The notes beneath the pieces are model-generated. The model made no database searches. It had not been told where the DNA came from and saw nothing but the letters and a program-made list of their open reading frames with translations. A stretch of 64,000 bases of DNA. Origin: Psilocybe cubensis. Lineage: Eukaryota. The stretch spans positions 372,001-436,000 of the forward strand of contig CM039002.1 of NCBI GenBank assembly GCA_017499595.2, in the 5' to 3' direction. Shown one piece after another: positions 26,541-46,899 of the stretch. The first letter of the stretch is position 1, and every line of letters starts with the position of its first letter. Both the position numbers and the translations under genes were made by a program.

Positions 26541-29253
26541 ATGGCACATATGTGGAATGAAGCTAAGAATGTGGTTGTACAAGGTGGTACATTTGTGGCT
26601 CAAACGGTTCGCCCAAGTACCGTTGTGATGTGTATGTTTGCTGAAGTGTTTCTGTTTCAACTGGACACATTCTCAGGTTGAGCACTCGCCGTACATATCG
26701 AGCGCATTCAGCATTAATGTGTTTCCTCGTATCTTTCGGGCACAAGCGGAAGCTTTGGAAGATACTACTGCTTCATCGGCCAAGAAGGATTTCTCTAGGC
26801 TGGGTCCCATATTTCCTGAGCCCCTCGTCGATGTCTACGGCCGTGACGAATACCTCGAAGACCTGGTGTTAAACAAAATTCTAGCGCAATTCGTTTCAAA
26901 ATCAGAAAATAAACGACACGTAGCCATCAAAGGAGGCCACGGTATAGGCAAGACGACAGTTGCAAACAAAGTTATTCGGGATCCTCGCATCGTCAAGTAT
27001 TTCGGGAATGCAAGGCACTGGGTTAGCTGTCGAGAAGCTTCTTTTATTGACAATTGTTTCAAGGGGCAAAAGTTGCTCGAATATATCTCCAGGAGCCTCG
27101 GGCTGGAGCTTACAGCATCTAACAATCTCCTCTACGACGTAAGATATTTTCTCGAGACAAACAATGTCCCTCGCATCATTATCTTCGACAATTTTGAGAC
27201 CATGTGGGGAGCCATTGAAGCAGGAGAAGGAGTGGGGAGTATCTTGAAAGCCTTAGCGCAGCACACCCAGGTCCTCATGGTTATCACAACTCGCTTCATA
27301 TATCCGCCCGCTGTCCACCTGGGAGTGTCGTGGCATTCCTTAGACACTTTGAGCCCACTCTCTTTGGACGCATCAAGAGATTTATTTATGAGCATTTGTC
27401 CTCAAGAATCTATCGATAAATACCTAGACGAGCTCCTTCTGGCAGTTAACTGTCTACCTCTTGCTATTGTCCTCATGGCGTCGACGGCACACGGATCGTT
27501 CACGACATACAGAATTTTGGAAAGATGGAGGAAAGGCCTTCAATGCGTAGCCCCAGACCGAAAAATGATTCCAGGTGACCCCGTAAAGCACCTCGGACCC
27601 TCAATTGAAATGTCGCTCGAAGGCCCATTGCTGAAGCATCATCCGGACGCAGTCGTACTCCTGAGGATAATTGCGGGCCTTCCTGGTGGCATAAAGGTCG
27701 CAAACCTTCAACAAATTGTTCCTGGAATACCGAGGGTAGATGAAGTGCAAGAGATTCTCCAGCAAACATACCTGATATACGAAGAAGACGGACTTACACG
27801 CGACCCCGAAGATCGAGTTCTCCAGATGCATTCCACCATTCGCAAGCATATGTTAGAGAACTACCACCTCGATTCAGAACATGAACGGAATATCCAGAAT
27901 TTCTACTTCAGACTGATTCACGAAGCCGGAAAAGATCCTGGAGCCAAAGATTTTCTGGCTTGTGCTCGGCGCCTATCCAAAGAGGAAATCAACGCAAAAA
28001 GTATTCTAACTGGAGTCTTGAGGGACGAGGCCAATGAGTATCAGGATTTCGTAGCAGCAATAACCGTCGCAATGGACTACTGCAACTATCTTATATGGAA
28101 CACTCCCAGCACAGATATAGCCGAGAAAACCGTCGATCTGCTAAAGAAACGACTGCCTTCAGGGACGTCAGTGTTGTTATCGCCAATGGAAAACTTAAAC
28201 GCACATCGGAATAGAGTCGCAGGGCAATGCTCCCGCAATATTGGTTCAGAGCAATTGTTTGCTATGGAACAATATCCACTTGCACTGCTGCATTTAGGCA
28301 AATTACAATCTCGATTGTCCCGCTACGGGGAGTCAAAGAAGACTTTCAACCAATTGTTACAACATTGCAATCCTGTGGAGCATCGGAGCCGGACCGCGGA
28401 AGCTGAATTCGAGTTGGCTCAGATCTATCGCATCCAGGGTGATCACGAGAAGGCATTGGAGCTCTTTTACAATGTATACAGTCGCTCAGGAGACGAGGCA
28501 CGCAGAAGGGCAGCCGCCCAACGAGGGATTGCAATTGTACACTTCGATGCAAATAATATTGCTGAAGCATTGGAAGCATTGAACAAGAGCAAACGTATTT
28601 TTCCGGAGAGCGACCAGGCATGCCAGGCCGACTACAAGCTCGGTGTGGGAAGAATACATAGAAACCACGACCAAACGCTCTCGATCAGCCTCTTATCCGA
28701 GGCAAGAGATTATTACACTGAACATGGACCTCGTCGAGAGGCTGCGATAACGCTGTATCAGAAGTCCATCGCACAGTATCTGAAGGGCGAATTCGATGAT
28801 GCTGAGAGAGGATTAAATGACGCATTTGATGAATTCAGGCCTCTTAGAAATGACGCGCAAATGGGATATTGCGTTTACCACCTAGCTTTATTGAACATGA
28901 AGCGTAGGAGGTTGCGTGACGCCTTGTCGCTGTTCCGCCGCGCGGAGAAGATGTTTGCACACATGGATAACAAGTTGATGGTTGGATTATCGTTGAAGGG
29001 GCAAGGAGACGTGTTGACATCGCTCTTTCGAATACAAGAAGCGGCAAACGCATACGATAAGGCTGATACTCTGCTAGGCAGTGTGAGGTCAACGGAAGCC
29101 ACGACTGCCTTGAAGAACATTCAACATACGCGTTACGCGATGCAATGGTACATCACCTTGGGCGTGGCATTTGCAGTCCTCTTTACATTGGCCCTTTTAT
29201 ATACCACTCAGACCACCAGTGTGGACATTTATGGGTACATACATCGTTTCTGA
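26541..29253 (+). CDS. Fungal NLR: short N-terminal motif + NB-ARC (STAND NTPase) + TPR repeats + C-terminal hydrophobic helix
   Basis: Walker A GGHGIGKT, Walker B IIIFDNFE, LPLAI (GLPL-like), MHSTIR (MHD-like) and helical TPR-type repeats. Exon 1 (26541-26606, MAHMWNEAKNVVVQGGTFVAQT) joins the long ORF in frame through a GT-AG intron at 26607-26676. Confidence 0.88.
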
Positions 29254-29854
29254 GAGTGCGTATGTCTTTGTAACAATGATAGATCGCATGAAACTCGCCT
29301 TTATAGAGTACAGATGTTTCGCTATTTGGTATTTTTTCTTTATTTTTGTTCGCCGCCTAATTCAATTGATTTTTCAGGTAAAGCCTCTTGACGATACCTC
29401 TGCACGTATATGTGAGTCAGGCTGCCTCTACTCGATTCACTGATGGAAGGTTCTTTGTGTAGTTGCACCTGTCAGCTGTCCTGTATTCCCAACTTTAAAA
29501 AGCAAGGATTACACTGCGATAACTTGACTGGCATGAAGTTGACGTCGAAGTTGAAGAAGAAGAGGGGTACTCAGTAGCAGTTCTCACGGTTGTTGTTTTT
29601 TTACGAGATTACCAAACAGCCCTCAGCAGAGCCAGTGGCAGTGCCAGCGTTGGTGAGTCAATGACCGGTCAACGTTTGATGGGTCAATGACTCGTGATGG
29701 GGTGATGACTAGTCATTGACTCTGAGGTGACTAGTCAATGACTTTGTAATCACGTGATGACTGGCAACGGTTTTGTGACTTGGTCATCTAAGGTGACCGT
29801 TATCTGATGACTGATTATGTAAAGAAATCAAGTCACGTTACAGTTGACCAGTCA

Positions 29855-30718
29855 CACGTCGGGGATTTCCGAATATAAGACGCACTTTTATGTAGAAACC
29901 CAATGTTAGTCGTGAATATTGAATACCGTACAAAGATGGATGAATTTCTTTTCCTTAAACTGTGAATAAATGTGTATGAATATTTCTTATGCCACATACG
30001 GGATCAAACTGTAAGAAAATATGCAAGAAATGCTTGACCAACATGTAAGATTAACTTTTAGTGTGACAGTGGGTACTGAGCGGCCGCTCAGCGGGCACTG
30101 AATACGAGTATGTACTCGTATGTCAACTGGAGGAAAATCTGTAAGATTTTCCTCCATGTTGATTTCTAGTTAATCTGTAGGAATTTCTTCAACTTTTTTA
30201 TTTATTTTACCTGTAAATATCCATGTATGATAAACTTTTTGCCCAAATGAAAAATTATTTTGCAGCGATTCTGCCACTCGACATAGACAAATAGATAAAA
30301 GTTAATCTTACATGTTGGTCAAGCATTTCTTGCATATTTTCTTACAGTTTGATCCCATATGTGGCATAAGAAATATTCATACACATTTATTCACAGTTTA
30401 AGGAAAAGAAATTCATCCATCTTTGTACGGTATCACCGCTGGCGCTCTTACATATTTTCAAAGAAAATAAGACCCAGTAATTATGTTTCCTACATTTTTT
30501 TGACGTATTTTATTGGAATATAGGCTTCGGGCTTCCCTAATTTGGTAACCCTGGACTCTATATACGAGAAAAATACGTCAAAAACCAATAGGAAACATAA
30601 TTACCGATACATATTTTTCTATCAAATATGTATCAGCGCCAGCAGTGTATTCAATATTCACGACTAACATTGGGTTTCTACATAAAAGTGCGTCTTATAT
30701 TCGGAAATCCCCGACGTG
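29855..30718. mobile_element. Foldback/MITE element with CAC...GTG termini and 3-bp TSD (TCA), CACTA/CMC-like
   Basis: About 70-bp perfect inverted repeat beginning CACGTCGGGGATTTCCGAATATAAGACG. TCA is duplicated at 29852-29854 and 30719-30721. An uninterrupted copy of the target repeat lies at ~30741-30785. Confidence 0.88.
29926..30430. mobile_element. Tc1/mariner-pogo-type MITE with long TIRs and TA TSD
   Basis: About 135-bp near-perfect TIRs beginning CCGTACAAAGATGGATGAATTTC, flanked by TA at 29924-29925 and 30431-30432. Confidence 0.9.
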
Positions 30719-31115
30719 TCAATTGATGGGCATTGACCGAGTCACGTTACAGTTGACCAGTCAATTGATGGGCATTGACCGAGTCATGACTATGGTGACT
30801 AGTCATGGGGTGTCATTGACTAGTCAATGACTTTACCATCGCTGAGAGCCACGCAGTGTGTACACGGCGGGACCTTCGCCACTGTTTTTTTGGCGTCGAT
30901 CGGAGTTACAAATAAATACGTTTAGATTTACAAAATAAAACCAAATTTAATACTGAAAATTAGCATCCGTCGGCGATGTGTTTAGCCGCGTTAAAAATCA
31001 CAAAATAACCAGTGCGTCAATGAGTCTCTGTTTTATAGCTTCAAATCCACTTCCTTACCACAGTCGTGTTCTGATTCTTTTTTTTTGTGGCAGCTAATTT
31101 GACGGCAGCCTAATA

Positions 31116-34100
31116 ATGGTCTTCGGCATTGACCCTGCTGGTTAGTGACATCACTCTCGGTCCACCTTACTACTCGGCTGAATTAAGAATAGTCGTTCAA
31201 CGACAAGTTGTACACGGTCAAACACTCTATTATTGCCGGGTCTGTCAAGATACAAAAGGTCGCCAAAAACACCACCTCAATGAGCACTTCAACACCACAA
31301 AACACCAAACAGCTCTGCAGGCATTTCATACCAAAGAGAAATCCTCTGCTTCTTCACAAACCTCGTTGCCACCGGTTAACAAGTCCCTTTTGTTAGAGGA
31401 CGCCTTACGTGCAATTCTTGTGTCTGCATCTCGTCAACCACACCAGCCTTTGTATCCTGCCAATGACCCTTGCCTTTCTAGGGTCTCGGCTGCACCTTCT
31501 TCAACCACTTTGTCGACGGTCTCTCCACTCACCAGGATTGACTGGAATCTATTCAACGATGATGAAATTATGTCGGATCCATCTCCCATCGACTTTGCGT
31601 CTGCCCAAATATGTCAAGCTACTCTGGATTTTCTAAATTCTAATAACGAGAGTGATGGATCTGATGATGGTGGTGGCAGTCCTCCGCTTTCTGAGAGTAG
31701 CAATGAGCAAGCCAATTCAGGTGTGTAACGTCTAAATAGCGCATATTGTTTGAGTCCTTAACTTTTAATCAGACACTGAACAAGTTGATAATGAATCTTT
31801 GCCCCGAAAACGTATGCGCGGTATTCACACCGACCCGGCTGAAGCTCGAAAATGGTATCTGTGGATTGATAAAATTGTGAGTCTTTGCCTGCCATCGGTT
31901 AGATTTTCTGCTCAATCAATAAATCAGACTTGTTCTCTTGATGTTTTGATGCACCTTCCACGATCACTATTTTCACGTCGTCAGCTGGATTTATTTCTCT
32001 GGCTACTGCGTATCAATGGCGTCAACGATGTGCCTAGCGTTAAGGCTATGCAAGGCATTAACAAGGCATTGCAGAATTTGTGTGGAATTGAGACGAAGGA
32101 GTACAAGGGCAAGCTGGGCAATGTATACTTTGTAAATTCTCTGTCTCAAATTCTTGCCCAGGTATGAATCTATATGTTACAAATGAATACTTTTGATTTC
32201 TAACCAATCTGAATAGGAAATGTCTAATCCTCAAGTCCGACCGTTCCTTTACTTCTATCCTGAAGATACGGGCAAATCGATTAGCGAAACCTATCAAGCT
32301 TCGGGTTGGCTGCGTGAAATCAATCCTGAGGATGGTACTCCAATGATACGGCTCAATAATAATGATTTTTTCATCTTTGAACCAACTATGCTGATTGATG
32401 GACGTTGCTGCATTCCTATTCAATGGTTTCTCCGAGAAGGTGTATTTTATGCCAAAGCCTGGCTTATGGAAGATACTCCTAGTGGTTGGGTTGTGTCCGA
32501 AGATCGCGAAATCAAAATCACGCAAAGCCAATTGCTAAAGAATTTTATTCAGTTGTCAAAGGATCACTTGTTGTATAACTTGTCACACCCTTCACGAATA
32601 TTTGGTATGGACTATATTTTATATATTTTATTCAATTTCTTATAAGTAAACAGGTGTGCGATCCATTCGGGGCCTGGGCTGTCGAAATGGACACGTACAG
32701 ATCCTACTATTGGCAATCGTTGGCGTGTATTAGCAAAGGGATACCGAGTCTATTCTCTGCCGCTATGGATGTACTGTGACGATACGTCGGGAAACCAGTC
32801 CAAGAAGTGGAATAAGCACAACAGCTACCTATTTATTCTAGCTGGTCTTCCTCGCAAAAAGAGTTCACAAGAATACAATATCCATTTTCTATGCACTTCA
32901 GATATTGCGCCACCTCTAGAAATGCTTGATGGTGTGGTTGATCAACTTCAGTAAGTTGTCACTATCTTATATTTGCTGCACATATTCTAATCATTTTAAC
33001 TTTAGATTGGCTCAAAAACATGGTATTTGGGTATGGGACTGTATACACAAAGAGGCCGTTATGATTTTTCCACCTGTATTTGCACTTCTGGGTGACAACC
33101 CTATGCATAGCGAGTTTGCTTGTCATATTGGAATGCAAGGGAAATATTTTTGCCAGATTTGCTGGGCCAAAGGAGTTGACAGTCAAGAATGCCCACACAA
33201 AAATCTTCCACATGACAGTTGTGCTCGACCCAACTTTCCTACCCTTTCAATCCATAGTGATGTTGATTCTGAAGATACCTTCACACGGCCTTCTCACAAA
33301 CGGCGGAGGTACAAGGAGTCTATGGAGTCAATGCTTCGAAGGGTTAGTGATTTTATAAAGGTGCGTAAAAGTTGTTTTATAACAATTTATATTTTAATCA
33401 CCTTTGATTCTAAGATTGGCAAACCGCGTCGCAAGAAAGAGACTATGGCTACTCTTGACTCTTTTTTGGAGCAAGCTAAGATGATTGGCACAAAATCAAA
33501 ACTTAGAGCTGCAAAAACGGAAACTGGCATCAAGGATGTTTTCCAGGACTTCTTTATTGAAAAGCTTTTCAAATCTTATAAGGGAAAAGTTTCTACTCAG
33601 GCAAAGGAAAAAGCTCTTAAAGCGGCTGTCGATAAGCTTCCTGGAGACATCAAAAGTCCCGTATGGAAACTTGGTGCGATTGAAATATTTTGCTTTAATT
33701 TACTAGCTAAATCTATATTCCAGGCTTGGATCCTCATCAGGACACTCCCGTCAAAATTCTGCATGTTGTATTGCTGGGTTTCGTTAAATATTTTTGGAGA
33801 GACCTAGTTCAAAATCAGGTTACTCCTGCTAAAAAGCAAACTTTGATTATTCGTTTAAACAGCCTCAGTGTGGCAGGTCTAGGTATACCCACATTAAATG
33901 GCTCCACACTAGTGAACTATGCCGGGTCACTAACTGGTCGCGATTTCCGAATTATTGCTCAAGTAGCGCCATTTGTCATCTACAACATGGTTTCTCAGGA
34001 GGTTTATGATGCATGGGTGTCCCTATCTACGTTAGTTCCAGTTATTTGGCAGCCAGCAATCTCTAACATTGATGAGTACCTGGTGCGTCTTCATTGTGTC

Positions 34101-35530
34101 TTTCTTTAAATTGTTTTATTAAATTAAATCATGTTTTAGCCCAGATTAGAGGCCGACATCAAATACTTTTTGTTGAAAACGGCAACATGGACCTGCGCGT
34201 GGTTTAACAAAACCAAATTTCACATTATTCTTCATCTTCCAGAACATGTCCGTCGGTTTGGGCCAGCAATATTGTTTGCCACGGAATCGTTTGAGTCATT
34301 CAATGCTATTATCCGTGCAAAAAGCATTCACAGTAATCACCAAGCACCTTCACATGATATTGCCCGTGGCTTTGCGCAAGGCAATCGGATTCGCCATCTT
34401 CTTAGTGGTGGTTTTTTTCTTCCACAAGAGCTTTATCAGTCTTGGAAAAAGGATCCAACAAATGTGGCTAATTCAGAGTGGCGCACTGCTGGACCTGGAG
34501 GTCTTCACCTTATTGATGCTCCAGACTCAACACCAGCTAGCTATTTGGGACTGCAGAAACCTGCTGCCAGTAAGGCTGGTAAGTTATATTTACAAATCTA
34601 TACTACTAGTGAGCGGTCTAATGCAATGGCCTAGGTTCATGCAAATCTAATGGCACAGATCCTCAACCATTTCATCGCACATTATGTGGCCAAAAGCTTC
34701 CCAACATTGTGCTCAATACTGCAGCCAGCCAACAACTGTATGTAACCAATTCCCAGGTCTATCTGAGAAACGAGGATCTATGCACCATAGGACAGTTTGT
34801 CATTGCCCAAATTCATCCATCCCAGCCGCCTCTGATAGGGTGTGTTCGAGAGATCTTGCAGCAGGTTGGCTCTCCAAACCATCTTCAAAACCGGCCCGAT
34901 GGTATTCTTATTCAAACAGCTTTACACCAACCGCCGTCGCACATATTGCCTGCTGGACAACTGCAGCCAGTTTTTATGCTCCGTCTGATTCTTCAGCAGG
35001 AATGGTCCTTCATTCCGTGGAGTTGCCTTCTTTGCACCGTAAATACTCAACATGACTGTCAACGTCATGGATGCCAGGCAAATGGGCTACAATACATCTA
35101 TCAAGAGCAAATACAAACTGATCAGACTAAGGCAACAATACTGCATCAAAACTCATTGGATGATATGCTCCTCCTCAATATGTGTCAAATGCGCGATGCT
35201 GCTCATCTCCAAAGTTTTCACCTCCACTCTGCCCCGTTAAACGAAGATGCTATAATTCAAAGAAGTGTGGCTCAAGCCATTGTTCAACGGAAGGTAGGAG
35301 AAGCCTCCCAATCAAGTACTTCCAAACCAACCAAAACACCAACAGCCGCCTTGAGACAACATGCCCAGAGCCCCTTGGGCACCCCTACTCTAGCAGCCAC
35401 ACCTTCTGGGGGTGTCAGTTTGCCTCAACATGCTTCAGCAGGAACATCTTCTGGAGGTGTTAGTTCACCTCGACGTAGCAGGCAAGCATCTGTGGTATAT
35501 CCAGGTCAAATAACATTGGACTTTCGATAG
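31116..35530 (+). CDS. CACTA/CMC-like DDE transposase, multi-exon, probably decaying
   Basis: N-terminal CxxC...H...H zinc finger. Motifs YCDDTSGNQSKKWNKH, LLGDNPMHSE, DPHQDTPVKILHVVLLG, LTGRDFR, KFHIILHLPEHVRRFGP..FATESFESFN and a C-terminal NTQHDC..HGC. Confidence 0.82.
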
Positions 35531-35583
35531 AAGTAAAACCATACTGTATTTATTTACTAGAATTCTACAAGAAGAATAGCAGA

Positions 35584-38056
35584 TCAAACTTGTCCAGAGA
35601 CCTCAAACGCAGCTTTTGAAATAAGATCTTGTAAGGTGCACAACATGCCCAACCCCCTCTTCCATCGTGTTGGCCTAAGCTCCATTTGCTCTTGATAAAG
35701 CTTGGGGTTTGTACGTTTTAACTCCTTCTCGGTGCGGTAGCCATAATCAACCCATCTAAACAGGCCACCTGAAGCATACTGAGTAAAGGAAGCACGCTCC
35801 TCTCCGTGTTCAATGCTGGTGTTTGAATGTTCTAGGACGGCGGACAGCATAAGGATGGTAGATCCTGCAGGGAACTCAATGGCCACTTTCAGGCCCCACA
35901 CCACAAAGTGACCACCCTTTTTGGCATTGAATTTCCCTAAAGACTGGATGGCGCACCAGCCATATGGACAGTTTTTGATATCAAAATGCGGGATGGTGCA
36001 AACCACAGACCCTAGGTTGAAGGTGGCCGCCGGAAATATGCTGCGGCGAAACAGTCGGACTAGCGTGGAGTCATTGGCGAATATCTTATCCATGTACAAC
36101 TTATAGTGGTTGTACACTTTAGGGCTCCATGTAGCAAATGCACCTGTGGATGTGTTTAAAAACAGGTTCACAAAACAGGCATAGGAGTCACTTACTGCTG
36201 GCAAAACTGGCCATTTGTTGAATGCTTTCCGACTGCAAGAGCTTGGCAGTGATTTTGGGATGGCGCTGGACGCGGTTGAGTGGAGAGTGTGTCCCTACAC
36301 CGTGTGTAACGCCGATGTTGAGTGCGGGATAATGACCACGATTTTCTGAATAGTCTTTGTGTGTAAACACTGTGGTGTGTCCGGCCTCCCTCAGTAGATC
36401 AAATGCTTCCTCCGTGGCACGTTCGTATGCAGGGTCCTTAGGACGGCCTGCCAGAACCATAAAAATACGTCCGTCTTCAGAAACAAACGGGACGGGGGTG
36501 CTATAGTGCATTAGCTTTAACTCCATCAAACTGAACAGATCAGAAGAGTTGTAACTCACCATCTATCCCAAGGTATAATGCGGAACCCAAGGGCCTTGAT
36601 GGCATCCAAGCTATATAGGTGACTTTTGTGGGGTTTTGTTGGTTTAGCACCATAGGCGCCTTGCGTGGCAGGCAAAGTGTCAAGCTTGACGTTGAGAGCC
36701 TCTGGCTGGCAGCTGGGAAGCATGCTTAAAAGACTGGGTTTTGGTGTGTGTCCGTGCTTATTGTATTGTAACGTCCGCTGATACTTGCGGCTGCGATGAC
36801 TGTTGGAAAGCCCATTGTATGGCCTTTTCAGGCTGGCGGTTTGCACGGATGGGTCTCGCTGAGGTAACGAAAGCGAAAGCTTGGTCGACGATTGCGAAGG
36901 TACAATCGGCGGTGTCAACATATTGTCAACCGATGGTGTCAACGCATCGTGGGCTGACAGCATCGACTCGCGGGTTGACGGGGTCGACGCGTTGTGGGCT
37001 GACGTCGTCGATTCGCGGGTTGACGGGATCGACACATCGTGGGCTGACGTCGTCGATTCGCGGGTTGACGGGGTCGACGCGTTATGGACTGACAGCATCG
37101 ACTCGCGGGTTGACGGGGTCGACGCGTTGTGGGCTGACGTCGTCGATTCACGGGTTGACGGGATCGACACGTCGTGGGCTGACGTCGTCGATTCGCGGGT
37201 TGATGGGGTCGACGCGTTATAGACTGACAGCATCGACTCGCGGGTTGACAGGGTCGACGCGTTGTGGGCTGACAGCATCGACTCGCAGGTTGACGGGGTC
37301 GATGCGTTGTGGGCTGACGTCGTCGATTCGCGGGTTGACGGCGTTGACACGTCGTGGATCGACGTCGTCGATTCACGGGTTGACGGGGTCGACACGTCGT
37401 GGATCAACGCCGTCGGCGTCGACGTATTGTTCGTAAACTGCATCCAGGTATCGTCCGTCGACCGATTCTTTGACGCATCGTGGATCGACGGCGTCCAGAT
37501 GTTGTGAACGGATGGCGTCGACGTATCGTCGGTCGATGGAATCAAGACATCTATTGACAAGTACGTGAATGGGCAGATGACGAGTAGGCAAACATGGTGA
37601 CTCACCTTGATCTAGATCTAACAAGTCTGTGTCCTCCCTTGCATCTGCTGCCCGCCAGGCAGAGATCAAGTCAAAAGCCAACGGATCCTCCCATACCTCA
37701 GGCTGACACTGGGCATACACCCTCCCAGATCATGTCTGCTTGAACAGATTTCCGATTTAAAACTTGGTATATGCATAGAAAAGTTTCCAAGGACGTACCG
37801 TATAGCGCGCCTATTGGCAGGCCGACATCTGTGCATGCAAAAACCAACGGTGAGCAGGGTTCTTGCAATCATGACACGCCCCAGCTCCTGCGTTGGCTGG
37901 CAGTTTGACAGACCCGGTCCAGGGGTGATCCCTCGCCTGGCAAGCCTCTAACCAACGCGAGAGCTGGGCCCTGTCGCGTTTCTGATATACGAACGTTTGC
38001 TTACCGGTGGGACGGGTATTTATACGAACGCGAATGAGGGGAATGTTGAACCTCAT
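35584..38056 (-). CDS. TET/JBP-family 2-oxoglutarate/Fe(II) DNA dioxygenase; 5' exon structure uncertain
   Basis: FPAATFNLG, HFD (HxD), GWCAIQSLGKF..KKGGH, IEFPAGS, LEHSN, ERASFTQY..GGLFRWVDYG. Upstream exons carry DGRIFMVLAGRP and RGHYPALNIGVTHG. Confidence 0.87.
36945..37395 (-). repeat. Coding minisatellite, ~10 x 45 bp (STPSTRES[TT/ML]S[AVI]H[DN][AV])
   Basis: Direct tandem units such as GTCGACGCGTTGTGGGCTGACGTCGTCGATTCGCGGGTTGACGGG, with a higher-order three-unit repeat. Confidence 0.93.
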
Positions 38057-38066
38057 TAAACAGATC

Positions 38067-38107
38067 AGGGGTCAGGTGATAGGGGTCAGGTGATAGGGGT
38101 CAGGTGA
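38067..38107. repeat. 3 x 14-bp direct repeat AGGGGTCAGGTGA(T)
   Basis: Read directly, immediately 5' of the ATG at 38056 on the minus strand. Confidence 0.85.
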
Positions 38108-38319
38108 CGTAGGTGGACGCGTTGCACCCGCGACACACTTCAACTGCTTTGACCTCAGAACACCTGGTAATACGTCAGTCCGCTACAAACACAAACACCG
38201 CAGAGTAATGCAGGTCTCAGGAATACTACCCAGGTGCGTTATATTTCATGCATCCCTTTTGTAAGGCCAAATTGACAATATAGTATTGAAAGTGCTGCAG
38301 ATTCTATTTCACAAACCGT

Positions 38320-39223
38320 CTAAACAATAGCAATGGGATTGTCAGACTGCAAAGGCTGAGGAGGAATGTAAACCGGTACGTTAATGCCATGGGACGTCAA
38401 CGCTGCTTTCAGCTGTTGGCTCCAATGCCTCTCTTCTACCAGCATAATTGCTGTGTTGTGTTCCTGTCTGACATATGTCCTCAACTGCTCTTCTAGACCC
38501 TCCACCACCAACGTCAGGTATGCAGAGCGTTGTTTGGAATTCTTCACAGACCTAACCAAGTTTTTTACCGCCTTTTTAGTTGACTGGGCCTCCTGGCGTG
38601 CTGCGGCAAGGTCCAACCATGCCGTTCAAAGCTGATTCTTATAGGCCACAGCTTCTCTTGTTGCCTCGATGGCTATTTCACGCCAAACAGTAATCTCTGC
38701 CTCCAGATCGCGTCGGGAACGTGGATAGGCCCTGTTCAAGCTGATTGTGGTTTTGTTGCGGGGAACCTTGGAGGAATGGTCTAATAAAGTGGATGTGAGT
38801 GGTCTCAACCTTTCACAGCAATACTGTCAACTTATGAAACGCACCATTCTTTTCAGGCATTTTGGATACAACCGGCTGGTCTTCGAGATCGCTTTGGCAC
38901 GTTGATCCAGGGGTATCACCTAGTTGAGTTTGGATGGTGTAAGTTCAAGTGCATTCGTGATAAGATTCTATTTACCAAGGCCGTAAAAACTGTAGTTGGG
39001 CAGACCATCAGTAACGTCAAGCCCTACGGGTGGGAGGTCAGGGTAGGTTATGCTGAGGTTTAACAAGGTTTGTTTACTGACCTGCATTCAGAGTTGACAG
39101 GTACTTTTTAGGTGCCTCATCGTCTTCATCTTGGTTGTGCTTCCTGAAACTTTTTTTTGGCGATGGAGTCTTAGGCGACAGCAGGCGGGATGGTAGACAA
39201 TTGTCAAGAGTGTTGGTAGACAT
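38320..39223 (-). CDS. Hypothetical multi-exon protein with C-terminal coiled coil (transposon cargo)
   Basis: ORF pieces 39074-39223, 38626-38808 and 38320-38616 lie on the same strand with splice-like boundaries. The C-terminus is heptad-like. The join is not fully resolved. Confidence 0.5.
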
Positions 39224-39521
39224 GTTGAGCGGTTCAAGATAACGAAACCACACAAATATCAGACTGATGGTTAAGGGAGTAAGAGAGTGAGACAAAAGGT
39301 GAGCAAACCTTTGGAATAACTTTGACGCCTCCTTTTTATGTGACGCATAGGTTTGTTGTTGTTGATGTGACACGACGCGAATTGTTGATTGACCTCGAAC
39401 GCGACGCGAATTGTTGATTGACCTCAAACGCGATGTGATTCGTTTGTTGTGGCAAACATGGCAAATCAAACTTGGGGTATAAAAGCAAGGTAAGAGATGT
39501 TTGCTTGATTCTGAATCCACA

Positions 39522-41081
39522 ATGTCTCATTCTTCGATTGACCCAGCTTTTGCATCACAGCCTGTTTCTCGTGACGTGGACCGCCCAACTGGTACATAGC
39601 TGTTTATTGACAACCTGGTTCACCGATTCAACCTCACAAGCAACCACAGTGCAGATCTCACTTTTCTTTATCAGGTAAACTTGTTTTTTACATAACGCCT
39701 ACATCAAACTGCTTCTAACTCGTAAACCCGCAGATCTGTACAGCCGTGCCTGAAGAGCAACCTCCTTAGACCGAAGTGATAAGTCGAATCATGATGTTGG
39801 CCTGCCAGTTTGGGGCCGAAGTTCGTCTGCATAAAGCACTGACTGCCACGCAAACACATCTACAAGGACTCGGGCAGCTGAGCAGTTTTTTGGCTGATTA
39901 TGAGCTGCAAAAAGATGAGAACTTTGTGTTATCAAATGCACAAAAGGTGAGTCATTGTTTGCCTTTATGAACACGGTGGTCTGAGCCAGCTTTTAGATGG
40001 CCATTAAATCAACCTGTATCAAAGAGCTTCTAAAGCCCTCTAGACAGTCCTTTAAGACGCTTCACATCGATGTTGAGGTGCGTTCTTTTCACTTTAATTG
40101 GCGGTCTAAAACAAATGCATTTGCAGGCAAAGATGAAAAAAAAGCCCGCAGACAATTACCTTGACAACATCCTGAATCGGCTGGGACGTGAGGCCAAATG
40201 GATGGCGCATATACAAACCGTTTGTACAATTCAGAGAAACACGCTTCGAAAAGAGGTGTGTGGTTGTCCGGTTTACCATATGCCGTGTACTGATGTGTGA
40301 AATTAAAGATCATACAAAGCATAACTCCAGGCCCAAAGTTTACTTCTGTGCAAGAATTTGCGGCGGGCCTCATTGTGAAATATTGTCTGCCTACGTCAGA
40401 GTCTGGTGCAAATTCCAATACAGCTTACCTCTCAAAACATGTGTTATTGGTGTGTCTTCAATATTTCTGATTCAAAAAGTTTCACTAACGTGGCAATGTA
40501 AAGTGGCGGTTTTTCTGGGACCATTCATCTATGTTTTCGGCCTTTGAACTTGAGAAGGATGACAACAACTCAGAAGAGGAGAACAATGACCAGGATTTTG
40601 GAACACCAAGCACCGACAACTCTAGCGATTCGGGTCATTCTGCTACCAAAAACGTAAATTGCAAAAAACAAACATTCCCGCTGGGAAAACTCGCGGTCGG
40701 GTGGCTGATGGCGAAGACTATTGGTCCAAAGTTGATCAATGGCTCAAGAGGCTTGACGATGAGCTGGGAGATAATACAGCTGAGTTGAAACAGTCCGAGT
40801 TTTCTCTTGTATTCTCAATGAGTTATGCTAAGCTTGTGAATAGATTTATTGCTGAATGTCTGGAGATGGACTCTCTCAGGACCAATAAAGGCTTAGATTT
40901 CTCAAGCCACCCTTCCGAGCGCTCTTTTACCAGCCCTAGCGATGTCACATCCGACCCACAACCCACCACTATACAGTCCTTTCCTTCCAATTCTTCTTCG
41001 AGGCTGCCTGAACCTCATTTAAATTTTGGTAATGCAATTGCTCAATTATTTAGTGGTCCTTCAACAGGTAGACCTTTTTAG
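39522..41081 (+). CDS. Hypothetical multi-exon protein (transposon cargo), possibly degraded
   Basis: ATG 39522 (MSHSSIDPAFASQP...) followed by GT-AG-bounded exons matching ORF fragments at 39776, 40070, 40531 and 40659. Includes the segment GRVADGEDYWSKVDQWL. Confidence 0.55.
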
Positions 41082-41432
41082 CCACTAGACTCCACTACAA
41101 TATAGTTATTAATTATGCGGAAATGTATGTGTAAACGCAACTAAATCTGAAGTTGATGTTGAGAACATGTAGCCCCTAATATTCAGTTTGCTAGTGTTTG
41201 GCACCGGTGATCATTTGATCAACAGCAACGAGTTATCGCTTTCATCTTTTCCTCCATGATCTCGCACAGCGGCACCGTGTTTTCCGCCGTGCATTGTTAA
41301 GAGATCCAGCCCTTTCATGTACTAAAAGCCATGCACTGGAAAGATCCAGATTCCCAATATGTGGGAACGCGTTGAGCGGCATGGTTGGGCATAGTTTTTT
41401 TTTGGTGACTGACATTTGATTTGTAGATCGCA

Positions 41433-42185
41433 CACTGGTGCAAGAACCTGCTTATTGCTGAGTATTTTTAGACAGCTATCCATGGCGAAAATTACTTATT
41501 TTAACACCACAGGTTCAAGAATATGTGCTTTGAAGTTTGACAAGGTCCAAGAACACCATTGCCGGAATCGATAGCCATCGTTGACACCATAGTTTGGCTC
41601 TGGAGAATGGGTGATAGTTGGATGCGCAACACAACATCGTCAACGCCATAGCCGGAATCGATCGCCATTGTCGACACCATAGTTTGGCTCTGTGGAATGG
41701 GTATTTGTGGATGCAATAACCCAGTGAGTACTTTATAGGATAGACGTTAGATTAGTAGTTATTTAGCTTCAGCTTCATGCTCAATATATGGTGTTTTATT
41801 ATAACCTAATCTTGTATGAAAGACCAAAAATAAAATTTCACAATGATATTATACTGTGAATACATATGAAAAGCCTACAAAAAAATATGTATTTGCTAGA
41901 ATGTGGCTGACACAAACGGTGCTTGGCACTTATGTGGCAGCCACATGAATTTCGGCCTGTTGTGTCACCCACTGATATCGGATGGAGGTGGCAGACACAT
42001 GTTTATTTGTGTCTGACATACATCGGCCAAACACATCCAAAAATGTGTCCAGCGGCCGCCTGTGTAGCAACGGAAGACACTCAAAATCTCCCCTGTCCTA
42101 CACAAGTAGATTCTCCGACATTTTTCTCCTTCTTGTCAACTTGTATGCCGTTGCTCGATTAAGCTCGCTTTAGTTTGCACCAGTG
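41433..42185. mobile_element. Possible small CACTG-terminated non-autonomous element
   Basis: 11-bp inverted repeat CACTGGTGCAA (41433-41443) / TTGCACCAGTG (42175-42185). Internal ~50-bp direct repeats at ~41561 and ~41651. No TSD seen. Confidence 0.4.
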
Positions 42186-42623
42186 AGGTTCCATCTATTG
42201 TCAACTTGTAGTGGTGCTCGGTCTCATGCTCTTGTAGTGCCCCTTTAAGCTTCATTGGCTATCGTCTCTCCAGAAGGAGTTTCTCTTTCCTACCCACTTG
42301 AATTGTAGTTTTTGTCTTAAGTGCCTCAGTCATAAGCTCTCTCCGATGGGTATTTTATGGATTTGGTTTCTCAGCATCATTCGCTGCGTCATAGACGGCG
42401 CTGAACGGCACTGCAAGGAACTGCTTCGAAAGAACCAAAAACGCTGGGCGGTGACGTCGTTCATGTCCTGTTGTACTCTTGTTTTCATGAATATTCACAC
42501 ATGGGGCCAACGCTACAGCTACCGACTTGCCATCTTCGGTGATCTTCTTCCTGATAGGCTGATCGATTTGAAATGGTTTTGTATATAAAGGCACGAGTTA
42601 TCTTCGACAGTGTCACAAGAAGA

Positions 42624-43811
42624 ATGGATTCTAACACTCGTCCTTCTTATATCACACCCCCACCTTCCTTTACCCAAAGCACAAATCCATACCATTCAGT
42701 GGGAGATGATACATATTCATTTGCTGCACTTGTGGCCAGTACACCATCCCATTCAGGTTTCCGTCCACAAGAATCAGCACTTGTAAGTTAAACAGATATA
42801 GTTCAGCGCTTTCTTTCATGCATACTAGTAGGGCTCGGACATGGACTTCGATATATCATCGACCCTCCCGAATCAGCCATCGATTGTAACTAGCAATGAC
42901 CATAACGATGCCATGATCTCTATCTCCACCTCTTTCCATCCAAATACACGGCCAACTCCTGACACAACCTTCTCAGCTGGGGACGGTGTAATTTTCTGTG
43001 TTTATTCCAAAATCATACTGGCAGTCTGCCCCACAGCATTCTCTTCTGTCATAGGTGATCCCTTGTCTCATCCGAGGTTCAGGACGGAGACTATTCTCCT
43101 CGATGCACCGAGCGCCGAGGTCAATATAATTTTTCACGCCCTATATGGTACATCGCCTGCATCTAATCGCCCAGATTTTGAGACCCTTGTGCGAGCAGTA
43201 GACCGCATGCCAACGTATTCGCTCTCTCCCAAGGCACTCATCCGACCATCAGGAAGCTTATACGAACTGCTTCTCTTCTATGCACCACTGCACCCCGTTG
43301 ATGCTTATGCACTGGCTGCCCATCACGAGCTACACCCACTCGCAGTCAGTGTTTCTCCTCATTTGCTCTCAATAAAGATCCAGAGTATATCGGACGAGGC
43401 CGCCGAGCGTATGGGTGCGATCTACTTCAAAAAGCTGCTTGAGCTTCATCTAGGACGCTTTGCGGCATTGAAAGGGATCCTTCTCCGGCCTCCGCACCCA
43501 CATCCAGCCAGCAAGACGTGTAGCTTCGACGATCAAAGAAAGAATATACGAGCATGGGCGCTTGCCAGCGCATCTCTAGTTTGGGATGCAGGGCCTGGTT
43601 CGTCTGCCGTTCTTTGCACTGTCTATGCTGACGGTCCCTGTTAGATCTCTCATCACAGATGATACGTAACGCTCTCAATCCTACCACGGAGAACTTGACG
43701 TGTGAGATGTGCCTGCAGACTCTGAAGGACAAAATTAAGGACGTGGTGGTGCAATGGTCGTCCGTTCGGGTAAGTGCCATTGATCATGTTTCGTTGAAAT
43801 CGTAGCCATGA
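42624..43811 (+). CDS. BTB/POZ-like domain protein (agaricomycete family); 3' end approximate
   Basis: DTTFSAGDGVIFCVYSKII BTB-like start, VNIIFHALYG, AYALAAHHEL, RMGAIYFKKL and a Cys/His-containing C-terminus (HP..TC...CEMC). Confidence 0.65.
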
Positions 43812-45522
43812 CCATTACCATCGTCGTTTACGTGGCTTGAGCGTGCGACTGGGGGAATTTTCTCAAAGTGGAAACGTTGAAGTACTGTTTGGTCGCAAGA
43901 CTTTGGGGACTGCGTGCTCTTTGCGCAAGAACCACGCCAACCGTGGCTTATGTCGGGTTCGTATTCTTCGTCTTTGCTAAGCTTCATGTGTATTATTATA
44001 GCGCACGATCTGAGACCAAAAGAGTGTCATCAGCGGCGGCAAGCAGAACATTATCAGGCTGGATATTGGACTGCTAAGCCGAACAAGCACAAGCTTCAAG
44101 CTTACGAATGTTCAGGAGCTCTGGCTTAATTTTTGAACGCTTATGAAATGTATCAATTTTCCGTACATGCCTCTTCTATTTTCCATTTTTCTTCTTGCTA
44201 TAGTGATTCGATATGCTGGTCTGGTGTTAAAAACATCATGAACTTTCGTTTTTACAATGCCGCCAGAGGCTTTTGATAAGCGCCCATCTTCTGTGGCGCT
44301 TGACACTACTGCTGCATCAGTCTTAAAACCGTGTTGAATGGTAATTCTCCCATTTGTATTCAACCATAAAAGATTTTGCCTTGTGTCTAAATTGAATTGG
44401 TAACAGTAATTAAACCGATGGATTAGGACCTATTGAGCAATGAAATCACTTCGTATGGTTGAAGGAATGGTTAGGTATGTTTTTGGCGTATCACACTCGA
44501 CCACATCACGTAAAACGTAGGTAAATTTTTGTTCATACAACGCGTTGTGGACTCTTTCAAAGCGAAAACACCATTTTCCTCGCTTCCCTCTCTTTCCTCG
44601 TTTCACTTTTCTCGCTTCCCTGTCCTTGCTTCTGACCTCTCTTCCTCTGCTCCCTAGTTCTCTTCGCTTACCATAACCCGTTCACGGCTCGTTATGTAGC
44701 CCATATTTTAAGTTTGTTGGTAATGTAGATAGGCCTTTTCTGCGACCAGTGGAGGCAAGCTCAAGCGCCTTGGCCACTGGACTCTTTTCCACTAGCAAGT
44801 AAATGTCGCCTGCTTTTCTGCGTTTATAAACTTGGATTGATTATGCTTCATACTTCGAACACATCTGCGATTCGTATCATGTGTCAAATGCACTAGTAGC
44901 ACCACGAATATCCACGGTCAAGCAACGTTCATATGCTCGAGGTCGCTGTCCCGATATACGATTTGTCTTATTCGGCCTAGGATCCTATTGAACGAAAAGG
45001 GGCGCAGGAAAAAAGCCTTGCAGGGGACGCGAGGATTTAATGAACAAACCAACAGAATCATACCTTCCAACATTTCAAAGCGTCCCCACTTGAATATATA
45101 AACCTGAATGCCACTGTCGCCACTATAGACTACAGGTTTCAACGCTCATCCACCCTATCCGCCGTTGTGCACAGCCACCTCTTGAGCTAGAACACGCCGA
45201 ATCGCGACTCACCATTGCAACTACGAGGTATCTCAAGACTCAAGGTATGTATCTTCGTTATCAATTTCTGATGACGACAATGCCCATTCCGACCCCAAAA
45301 CACCATTTATGGTACCCTGGTGTCGATTGTTGCACGATGCGCACGGGTAAGACCCGACGCAAGCGCGAAAAATGCATCTGGGGTAGCCTCTGTGCCCTAT
45401 CTACGCACTCGTCTTGATTTGTCTTGTAGCTGACAACACATTAAAAGGATATCAGAGTCTGAATATAAAGTGCACGACTGGTCGGTAACCTGCAAAGCGC
45501 TTTATCACTGAACGATATTGTC

Positions 45523-46899
45523 ATGTCCGTCGAAGTTGAGCGACTAAAGTCGTCCATTTCAGTTACCCCGATATTCGATGTTGACCAGCGTACGGGATTC
45601 ATGGCGCCGGATCCTCCGATTCCACGCTTACCGACCGCATGGGAGCCCTGGGAGGCCGCCCTCGACGCCGCCGTGCAGGCGAAACTTCAATTAGGAGACA
45701 AGATAGGGTTGACGAACCTGGAAAAAACCACATCAAGCAGATGGAGAGAGAGCGTCCGACAGGTGGGCATACTTCGGATCTTGTTTCAATTATCAAACTG
45801 ACAGATGTAGCTCCCTGTTCTTGCCACAGAAGAACTCTCCAACTCTGCTATTCTCCTGCGGCGCGCGCACCTTGTCCTTGCATATATTTTACACTTCTAT
45901 GTCCAAAGTCTCCCACTTACCGCAGAGATATTGATACCTGAATCGATTGGCGTCCCCTTGCTGGAGGTCTCCTCCAAACTCGACATCCCGCCGCTCCTGA
46001 CCTTTTCCGACACTGTGCTCTATAATTGGCGCTTTCGAGATGAAGAGAGTGCCGAAGATTCGGTACCGACACCTGATAACATTCGGAGCCAGACGCTGTT
46101 TACCAACCTCGTCGACGAAGAAGAGTTCTACCTCTGTTCTGCACGCATTGAGCTCCGGGGTGTCGAAATCCTAGAGTTGATGAGAGTGACAATGGACGAA
46201 ACATTCGTCGGTGACGTTATTGCCGTCTCGCGGATCAAAGAATATCTCAAAACTATTGCCCGAGTCATTGGAGAGCTGAAGGCCCTCCTGATGAGCGTGA
46301 AGCAGGGCTGCGATCCTGATGTTTATTACAACAAGGTACGGCCGTGGTTTAGAGGGGAGGACTCCGCGGAGACTACCAGAAAGTGGAATTTTGAGGGGTT
46401 AGACAAACATCCACATCTCAAGCTTCCCACCGAGCTTTCAGGGCCAAGTGCAGGTCAAAGTTCCATGGTTCACGTTCTCGATGTCTTCCTGGGCGTAGAC
46501 CATCAGGCAACGTCTCCCGGAAAGCCGTCGTTCATGTCGCGCATGCAGTCGTATATGCCGCGGAACCATAGGCTGTTCCTTGATCATCTCAAAGCGAATC
46601 CTCGTCCTCTGCGAGCGTTCGTGGTCGACGCAAACAATGCGGAGTTGCTGTCAGCTTACAATCAGGCTGTCATGTCTTTAAAGGAGTTTAGAGACGCACA
46701 CATGATCATCGCCACACTGTACATTCTAGGGCCAGCCAGGCGTGCGTCTAAATTGGCGAATGACATTGCGGAACATGATTCTACCACCAAATCAAGAGCC
46801 CCTGTCGGATGGACGCCTGTGAAGGGAACCGGAGGCACAGAATTGGTAAAATTCCTGAAGGATACTCGAACTCGTACCAGCGAGAGCTTGATACACTAG
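45523..46899 (+). CDS. Indoleamine 2,3-dioxygenase (BNA2-like)
   Basis: TGFM..P..RLP..W..WE, RRAHLVL, PPLLTFSD.VLYNW, GPSAGQSS, YMPRNHR, FRDAH (proximal His) and KGTGGT. One intron at ~45763-45830. Confidence 0.93.

Follow-up and report, generated by a model that had tools for sequence, protein, structure and literature searches.

The mushroom Psilocybe cubensis carries a multi-copy DNA transposon of 11,202 bp, described here from the copy found in a 64,000-nucleotide stretch of contig CM039002.1 (the window; all positions refer to it, and labels of the type P00xx denote proteins of this analysis). The element encodes a transposase that belongs to the CACTA/EnSpm-Mirage-Chapaev-Transib (CMCT) clade and has a RAG1/Transib-like core, and next to it lies a gene for a predicted TET/JBP-fold dioxygenase. 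Taken as a whole, we read the element as a TA-inserting CMCT transposon of the ESTA/EnSpm-like kind with three cargo genes, namely the TET-fold dioxygenase and two lineage-specific orphans, and we put the probability of this reading at roughly 0.78. The transposon is autonomous, recently active and of the cut-and-paste type, and it inserts at TA. Its boundaries, its mobility, its multi-copy state and the constant linkage of its genes are shown here, and so are the assignments by fold and by motif. That the TET gene is the transposon's own cargo, as a preliminary description of this DNA had proposed, follows from an empty allele in every DNA sequencing run compared, from multi-copy contigs, and from the adjacency of transposase and TET genes in all ten listed JR316 copies. 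The features of the element are collected in Table 1.

Boundaries, copies and mobility

Copies of the element were inferred from public sequencing runs and from protein records, and the contigs of four runs were compared over positions 27000-44500. All three DNA runs (X5, X6 and X9, from two studies) contain an empty-site allele: a contig of single-copy depth follows the left flank to 29634, continues with five letters, and then resumes at 42061 and runs on through the right flank, which leaves this allele 12,426 bp shorter in total than the window. The filled allele reads ..GTGTG-TA-CACGGCGGGACC ... GGCCGCCTGTG-TA-GCAACGG and the empty allele GTGTG-TA-GCAACGG, with one TA only. The same three runs also contain the gene-bearing part of the element, as three contigs (30861-36983, 37364-39402 and 39409-42066) whose breaks coincide with tandem repeats; between the window and these contigs the divergence is about 0.8% (50 of 6124 positions). 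Their k-mer depth is 291-331 against 88 for the flank in X5, 82-91 against 21-37 in X6 and 45-47 against 9.5 in X9, that is, about 3-5 times flank depth, although such ratios are not copy numbers and serve here only as a sign of several copies.

The multi-copy contigs of X5, X6 and X9 start at 30861 and stop at 42066, several contigs diverge before 30861, and TA lies inside the sequence common to all copies at both element ends. Because the multi-copy contigs are bounded at these two positions and the empty allele has a single TA, we place the element at 30863-42064 with a TA duplication. The coordinates of the joint itself, 29635 and 42060, were considered as element ends and rejected, as no inverted repeat or duplication fits there. 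The preliminary description had given the span as 31116..41081; the four genes it placed there stand, and the mobile unit with its TA flanks is larger. The ends of the 11,202-bp transposon are CAC..GTG (CACGG..CTGTG), in keeping with the CMCT pattern of 5'-CA..TG-3' termini and a duplication of 2-5 bp. A subterminal 14-mer was found by local alignment of the left 253 bp with the reverse complement of the right 315 bp.

Table 1. Features of the transposon, in window positions
Feature	Position	Strand	Remarks
TA target-site duplication, left copy	30861..30862	.	filled versus empty allele
Whole DNA transposon	30863..42064	+	11,202 bp; left end 5'-CACGGCGGG, right end CCGCCTGTG-3'
Left terminal inverted repeat, short: CACGGCGGGACC	30863..30874	+	pairs with reverse-complemented right end CAC(A)GGCGG, one additional base
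Subterminal 14-mer	30975..30988	+	inverted copy at 42024-42037, 13/14 alike
Transposase gene with introns, 1283 aa	31116..35530	+	apart from introns identical to P0001/A0A8H7XVA1 (P. cubensis UniRef)
N-terminal C2H2 (U1-like) zinc finger, residues 21-47	31228..31308	+	C-x2-C ... H-x5-H in sequence
C-terminal BAH-like domain, P0001 about 1018-1169	34730..35185	+	mapped from P0002 model residues 841-984
TET/JBP-like 2-oxoglutarate (2OG)/Fe(II) dioxygenase gene	35584..37828	-	models P0048, P0049; catalytic part about 35584-36560
45-bp tandem repeat, about 10 copies	36938..37402	-	15-aa Ser/Thr/Pro-rich repeats, disordered N-terminal half of TET
TAG stop at codon 6 of TET frame	37811..37813	-	Trp in subfamily B copies
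Gene 3, orphan, about 227 aa, without known domain	38320..39223	-	N-terminal part of merged model P0048
Gene 4, orphan, about 400 aa, P0071-like	39522..41081	+	acidic Ser-rich stretch, then basic KKRK stretch
Right non-coding arm	41082..42064	.	90-bp repeat (41552-41702) and GTGGCAG / GTGTCTGACA-type short motifs
Right terminal inverted repeat	42052..42064	-	inverted ends CAC(A)GGCGG
TA target-site duplication, right copy	42065..42066	.	filled versus empty allele

Linkage of transposase and TET genes

Within the element the transposase gene and the TET gene converge, with stop codons at 35528-35530 and 35584-35586 that lie 53 bp apart, and beyond the TET gene follows the divergent pair of genes 3 and 4; both arrangements are those of the preliminary description, which had put the stops about 50 bp apart. 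The transposase gene and the TET gene both lie within the segment that is missing from the empty allele, and one multi-copy contig covers the transposase together with the 3' part of TET. For strain JR316, linkage was taken from cluster look-ups (up to four accessions per protein, so that the list may be incomplete), and among the accessions listed there are at least 10 GenBank entries for the transposase and at least 10 for the dioxygenase. In 10/10 listed JR316 copies a TET accession stands at +1 or -1 of the transposase accession, with adjacent locus tags where these are given (for example 0002693/0002694, 0008111/0008112 and 0010408/0010407), so that the lack of TET in other copies, which would have made the adjacency look accidental, is not what the listed copies show. 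For 7/10 of these transposase copies the list also has gene 4, at a distance of 3 to 5 accession numbers, and gene 4 copies sit on different contigs. The window's apparent source assembly has a number of UniRef entries similar to that of the JR316 accessions, and the roughly ten copies of the element are more than 90% alike in protein.

From the window alone, with its single copy and its genes on opposite strands, one might suppose that a host TET gene simply happens to lie beside a transposase gene. The 10/10 adjacency in JR316 excludes such a coincidence, which is also refuted by the multi-copy contig shared in three runs and by the absence of both genes from the empty allele, and we give it practically no weight. 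Outside P. cubensis, transposase and TET matches of one species (Favolaschia, Agrocybe chaxingu and three Mycena species) never came from contigs of equal length; as a test this is very weak, and it does not speak for absence of the linkage. We note in passing that GenBank and UniRef give one transposase copy, P0076 (JR316, KAH9483730.1), the name 'Heat-stable 19 kDa antigen', in what looks like an annotation error.

A CMCT transposase with a RAG1/Transib-like core

The catalytic residues of the transposase are, in P0001, D458/D459, D545, C564-x2-C567, H724/H733, H867-x3-H871 and E888/E891. Of 34 relatives from many Agaricomycete genera, 30 to 34 retain the residues of this DDE + C(2)C + H(3)H signature, and each of those just named apart from H724/H733 is present in 32 to 34. 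The four motifs quoted in the preliminary description are likewise all found in P0001: DDTSGNQSKKWN at 458-469, GDNPM at 544-548, HQDTPVKILH at 724-733 and FATESFESFN at 885-894. At the N-terminus, the zinc finger gives a weak Pfam match to SF3a60_Prp9_C (E 0.002, under the cut-off), and UniRef names one relative, P0013, a C2H2-type protein.

A search of PDB sequences with the transposase family profile gave no match. The fold was examined in the AlphaFold model of the relative P0002, which has a predicted local distance difference test (pLDDT) score of 74. Foldseek matches this model to RAG1 at 1.5e-5 and to HzTransib at 1e-3, and in VIA it aligns with RAG1 at Z 14.5 (root-mean-square deviation 5.1 over 440 residues) and with HzTransib at Z 11.9 over 409 residues.

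Comparison of hidden Markov models with the family was the check that the preliminary description had called for. The Pfam models for KDZ (PF18758), the CxC clusters (PF18802/PF18803), Plavaka (PF18759), Transposase_21 (PF02992) and BAH (PF01426) match 0/34 relatives at E<=10; likewise, the KDZ and CxC models match none of 8 exon pieces of the window at E<=0.1, and PF18759 none of 15 family members at E<=1. The positive control, P0066, is recognized as KDZ at 4.3e-65 and as CxC2 at 9e-39.

Kyakuja/Zisupton (KDZ) transposons that carry TET genes have reportedly been described from mushrooms, by Iyer et al. 2014, and they figure in Kojima 2025 (PMC12730594) as well. They resemble the P. cubensis element in being DNA transposons with TET/JBP cargo in Agaricomycetes, and the TET relative P0066 stands beside a KDZ transposase, being fused to CxC2 and KDZ domains in a gene model of Arthromyces (35% identity to the P. 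cubensis TET over 303 aa). It could be argued on this ground that the transposase, too, is a divergent KDZ enzyme, as for most mushroom TET genes. This is refuted for the transposase by the lack of any KDZ or CxC domain in the family, set against the strong match of P0066, by the RAG1/Transib fold, and by the target-site duplication of 2 bp, where Kojima 2025 (PMC12730594) gives 7 bp for Kyakuja and 8 bp for Zisupton/Dileera; a KDZ assignment is accordingly next to impossible. The KDZ link concerns the origin of the TET gene only, and the occurrence of the same type of TET beside a KDZ transposase suggests that the gene was transferred between transposon superfamilies. With the signature residues, the fold, the CAC..GTG ends and the 2-bp duplication all in agreement, the transposase is CACTA-like and not KDZ, as first proposed.

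A BAH-like domain at the C-terminus

The C-terminal ~150 residues of P0002 resemble BAH structures. The best matches are AIPP3 and EBS (Z 10.2 each), and BAHCC1, ZMET2, the first BAH domain of DNMT1 and ORC1 follow at Z 8.2 to 8.8; within the whole-protein model, seven different BAH proteins are matched at Z 8.2 to 10.2 over 94 to 110 residues. The region contains near-invariant residues across the 34-member family, in which, as stated above, the Pfam BAH model finds nothing. A literature search found no fusion of a BAH domain to a transposase of the EnSpm kind, and the main text of a chromatin-evolution preprint describes fusions of transposable elements with Chromo and PHD domains, without mention of BAH. 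The BAH-like domain may guide the transposase by way of chromatin or histone marks.

The TET/JBP-like dioxygenase

The catalytic residues of the dioxygenase, in P0048 numbering, are H738-x-D740, H791 and R802. Among 20 TET relatives H494, D496, H547 and R558 are invariant or at least 90% conserved, and the family keeps an HxD motif (HFD in the window), a distal His and Arg-x-Ser. In the structural model the catalytic domain has pLDDT above 90 and residues 55-253 have pLDDT below 50. Compared with PDB structures, the fold is closest to CcTET (3e-12), NgTet1 (7e-9) and TET2 (9e-8), followed by CMD1, and FTO and AlkB-like chains are weaker matches (3e-5 or worse). In the protein-language Atlas search, 19 of the 30 TET matches are Tet_JBP clusters, and relatives of the gene occur across many Agaricomycetes.

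In sequence the enzyme is far from CcTET, the reference for Kojima's AG type: the structural alignment gives 11% identity, and by eye the positions after HxD that would correspond to Gly331 and Asp337 read N and C/A. Nor is the HxE of the PE type found, since D is at least 90% conserved at this position in the family. As modelled, then, the cargo is a TET/JBP-fold dioxygenase that is remote from CcTET in sequence and not of the PE type. The 45-bp tandem repeat in the N-terminal half varies in copy number between element copies, and assemblies and contigs break there.

Genes 3 and 4

Neither gene 3 nor gene 4 has a Pfam match. The last exon of gene 3, compared with 1.84 billion representatives, gave 0 matches, and relatives of gene 4 were found in P. 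cubensis only, in a word-limited search. A TnpA-like accessory role for the two genes is only a guess. The preliminary description had spoken of a four-gene anti-silencing module; of this, the joint travel of the genes holds, whereas the function is conjectural, with genes 3 and 4 orphans and an early stop in the window's TET.

Two subfamilies and the state of the window's TET copy

An alignment of nine TET models reveals two element subfamilies in P. cubensis. Subfamily A, to which the window copy belongs, accounts for 7/10 listed JR316 TET accessions, and subfamily B, which is intact, for 3/10. Subfamily A has more 15-aa repeats, and none of its gene models begins at the normal start. Otherwise the catalytic domain contains no stops and is near-identical between the subfamilies, with H, D, H and R intact.

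The base composition of the element also differs from that of its surroundings. The observed/expected ratio of CpG is 0.59-0.68 in the transposase gene, gene 3 and gene 4 as against 0.92-0.98 in the host flanks, and TpG/CpA is raised where CpG is depleted in the element genes. Such depletion is what would be expected if the element is, or was, CpG-methylated. In addition, at the positions where the window differs from the other runs, A or T stands in the window far more often than G or C (for X5, A>G 56, T>C 59, C>T 22, G>A 27), which is consistent with C-to-T decay of the window copy.

Contrary evidence and alternatives

Several observations weigh against the reading set out above. With respect to the boundaries, the terminal inverted repeats are very short (~10 bp), and the empty allele also lacks a neighbouring 1.2-kb small element and the miniature inverted-repeat transposable element (MITE) nested in it, so that the polymorphism is a compound one; the left end is based on contig ends, inverted repeat and TA, without a clean single-event joint. 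The caution stated with the depth ratios belongs here as well. With respect to the dioxygenase, the window exon falls below the cut-off of the Pfam Tet_JBP model (PF12851; 23.1 bits against 34.9), sub-threshold matches to this model occur in 2/9 TET relatives, and searches of PDB sequences with the single TET sequence and with a profile of 20 relatives (E<=10) returned no chain, the CcTET chains included. Expression has no RNA support either: none of the runs is recorded as RNA, and run X14, which we guess to be RNA, covers host genes and 41922-42066 and none of the four genes, and is thus silent on their expression. In X14 a 1766-nt contig of depth 204 joins the final 145 bases of the element (41922-42066) to unrelated sequence, which might reflect either read-through into another copy from its neighbour or the presence of DNA in the library.

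A further point of this kind concerns the class of the transposase. In the Atlas search the closest named clusters are Plavaka-labelled, with Transposase_21 more distant, and the placement relative to ESTA, EnSpm and Plavaka is by domain models, fold and ends. The element might therefore be a member of the described Plavaka lineage, for example of TET-carrying PlavakaB as in Agaricus bisporus. The best clusters carry PF18759 (score 0.95, 201/256 features, 18/30 matches with that set), and Kojima 2025 (PMC12730594) remarks on a resemblance to Plavaka transposases in rust elements there filed under EnSpm; Plavaka, too, has the C(2)C / H(3-4)H motifs. On the other side, PF18759 is not detected in the family even at the most permissive threshold used, the Plavaka model is present in only 32 to 42% of the members of the best Atlas clusters, and the ends CAC..GTG with TA are unlike those that the same paper gives for PlavakaA (TGT..ACA) and PlavakaB (CATCA..TGATG). 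Membership of the described Plavaka lineage is hence distinctly improbable, and the transposase is not typical Plavaka by Pfam and by its ends. The preliminary description had held the motifs to differ from those of Plavaka; a separation from Plavaka is borne out in part, by domain model and ends, and the Atlas result qualifies it, as kinship of the two at some depth is likely.

The remaining points concern the TET gene itself. In the window its conserved first exon is broken off by the stop after MSACQ, where other copies continue with Trp (MSACQW), and the window's subfamily has two substitutions: Leu for a Pro that is at least 90% conserved and precedes the distal His, and Arg in the WDG motif (WDR). 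Since most copies belong to the TET-damaged subfamily, the enzyme is not needed in cis by most copies, and it may be that the element does not need it at all. One may then ask whether the TET gene is a hitch-hiking or decaying passenger without a role, in a unit that spreads by its transposase alone. This would agree with the Leu at the conserved Pro in the commoner subfamily (7/10 JR316 TET copies and the window) and the stop at codon 6 of the window copy, and also with the lack of expression support and the orphan status of genes 3 and 4. Yet TET is kept in all 10 listed copies, its catalytic domain is otherwise stop-free with the four catalytic residues in place, and dioxygenase relatives are kept across many Agaricomycetes; moreover, the repeated capture of TET genes by unrelated fungal transposons (Kojima 2025, PMC12730594) argues for a benefit to the element. 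We consider a passenger without a role unlikely, if less so than a Plavaka origin. The window copy may depend on intact copies in trans.

Comparison with known elements

TET-carrying EnSpm, ESTA and Plavaka elements of fungi were catalogued in December 2025 by Kojima (Kojima 2025, PMC12730594), the first catalogue of this kind of element in fungi, with TET genes captured repeatedly by unrelated fungal transposons. ESTA elements are defined there by a TA duplication together with an EnSpm-like, RAG1-similar transposase. The P. cubensis element shares with them the TA duplication, the ends starting from CAC, the RAG1-like transposase and the C(2)C / H(3-4)H motifs of the CMCT clade, and some ESTA families carry TET/JBP; indeed, ESTA-3_PCor starts with CACGGCGGGA, the first 10 bases of the P. 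cubensis element (Kojima Table S1). In contrast, the ESTA families given in the portions of the paper used here come from rusts only (Puccinia, Melampsora) and have a TET of the PU type, whereas the present host belongs to the Agaricales and the TET is of another type, and neither a BAH-like domain nor the two orphan genes is mentioned there for ESTA. This likeness is one of terminal features and fold.

A second relative from the same catalogue, EnSpm-22_AB of Agaricus bisporus, is likewise a CMCT element of an Agaricales host with a TET/JBP gene, and its terminus is the same as CACGGCGGG over 9 bases. It differs in that its TET is of the PE type (HxE, against HxD here) and that its EnSpm label stands for a 3-bp duplication, against TA here, and the start of its first open reading frame is, by eye only, unlike the N-terminus of the P. 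cubensis transposase. Judged by the TA duplication and the terminus, the P. cubensis element appears closest to Kojima's ESTA and the fungal EnSpm elements.

The more distant comparisons are also informative. With RAG1/Transib the element shares the fold of the catalytic core, at the Z scores given above, and DDE with C(2)C and H(3)H, but identity is only ~10%, the duplication is TA as against 5 bp, the transposase has additional C2H2 and BAH-like domains, and no RAG2-like partner was seen. With plant CACTA/En-Spm it shares the motif order D, D, C2C, H3H-GP, E, the ends starting with CAC and the multigene organization; unlike these it has no match to PF02992, its ends are CACGG and not CACTA, its duplication is 2 bp and not 3 bp, and it is without long subterminal repeat arrays common to both ends. 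Lanisha, in turn, is a moss lineage.

The preliminary description had suspected a less-described TET-carrying lineage. This must be tempered, as TET-carrying EnSpm, ESTA and Plavaka elements are all in Kojima 2025 (PMC12730594), but neither the P. cubensis family nor its host appears in the parts of that paper at hand. The words DDTSGN, GDNPM, SFTQ, LFRW, FNLG, GGHL, FPPGS and HSNT have 0 occurrences in the truncated text of its supplement, which lists no transposase proteins, and among the papers listed by a literature search on Psilocybe with TET or transposon none mentions Psilocybe. Three features are found neither in the portions of Kojima 2025 drawn on nor in the literature retrieved: an ESTA-like element in Agaricales, a CMCT element with the P. 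cubensis type of TET, and a transposase of this kind with a BAH-like domain.

Insertion site and neighbourhood

The insertion site (29600-29634, 42061-42090) lies in a short sequence that is found elsewhere in the genome in diverged form, and several contigs, after matching 29600 to 29633, go on into sequence that is ~72% alike to the right flank. The small element of about 1.2 kb that is also absent from the empty allele is separate from the TET transposon, from which it lies only 8-10 bp away; it occupies 29635-30852, with inverted ends from 29645 and 30843 and AGAGCCA flanks. Repeats of GTCAATGAC, of which the window has 6 against 0.6 expected, were considered as part of the TET transposon and rejected, as they belong to the inverted ends of this small element. 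Nested within it is an 864-bp MITE (29855-30718), whose inverted repeats are perfect over 72 nt and begin with CACGTCGGGG. This MITE also has a TCA duplication and an additional 138-nt inner inverted repeat, and its depth is 10-20 times that of the flank in three runs. The terminus of the MITE resembles that of the TET transposon, and a related transposase may therefore move it.

The rest of the window consists of ordinary host genes, for TFIIF-beta, an M3 peptidase, Lon, an NB-ARC/TPR protein, an indoleamine dioxygenase and Xrn1. The NB-ARC/TPR (NLR-like) gene (26629-29253, +) lies directly upstream of the insertion cluster, and the indoleamine 2,3-dioxygenase gene (45811-46899, +) lies downstream.

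What the element may be doing

It is tempting to consider how such a set of genes might work. The dioxygenase would oxidize 5-methylcytosine, and possibly N6-methyladenine, on the DNA of the element, as the biochemistry of CcTET and the argument of Kojima 2025 (PMC12730594) lead one to expect; by analogy, oxidation of 5-methylcytosine could free the element from silencing by methylation. The enzyme may act in trans, in view of the damage to TET in the majority subfamily. A more ambitious reading would join all of these features: an ESTA-type lineage outside the rusts, with a KDZ-linked type of TET that is neither CcTET-like AG nor PE, and a transposase whose BAH domain reads histone marks, so that the element would read repressive chromatin and erase DNA methylation, its majority subfamily having lost the TET start and using the minority's enzyme in trans. 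As a package this is doubtful, and we offer it tentatively, although we would rate it a little above the view of TET as a passenger without a role.

The P. cubensis family leaves the general picture of the December 2025 publication (PMC12730594) unchanged. Nonetheless, among mobile elements that might counter silencing by DNA methylation through an enzyme they themselves encode, transposons with a TET gene are the clearest candidates, and for this family there is direct population evidence of recent movement, in the form of filled and empty alleles and some ten similar copies. In mushrooms, the combination of this transposase lineage with this type of TET is new and implies another transfer of TET between superfamilies, and a RAG1-like transposase may here possess a chromatin-reader domain. 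Finally, element copies with intact and with damaged TET genes exist side by side in a cultivable fungus, and they offer a natural comparison by which action in cis, action in trans and no action at all might be told apart.

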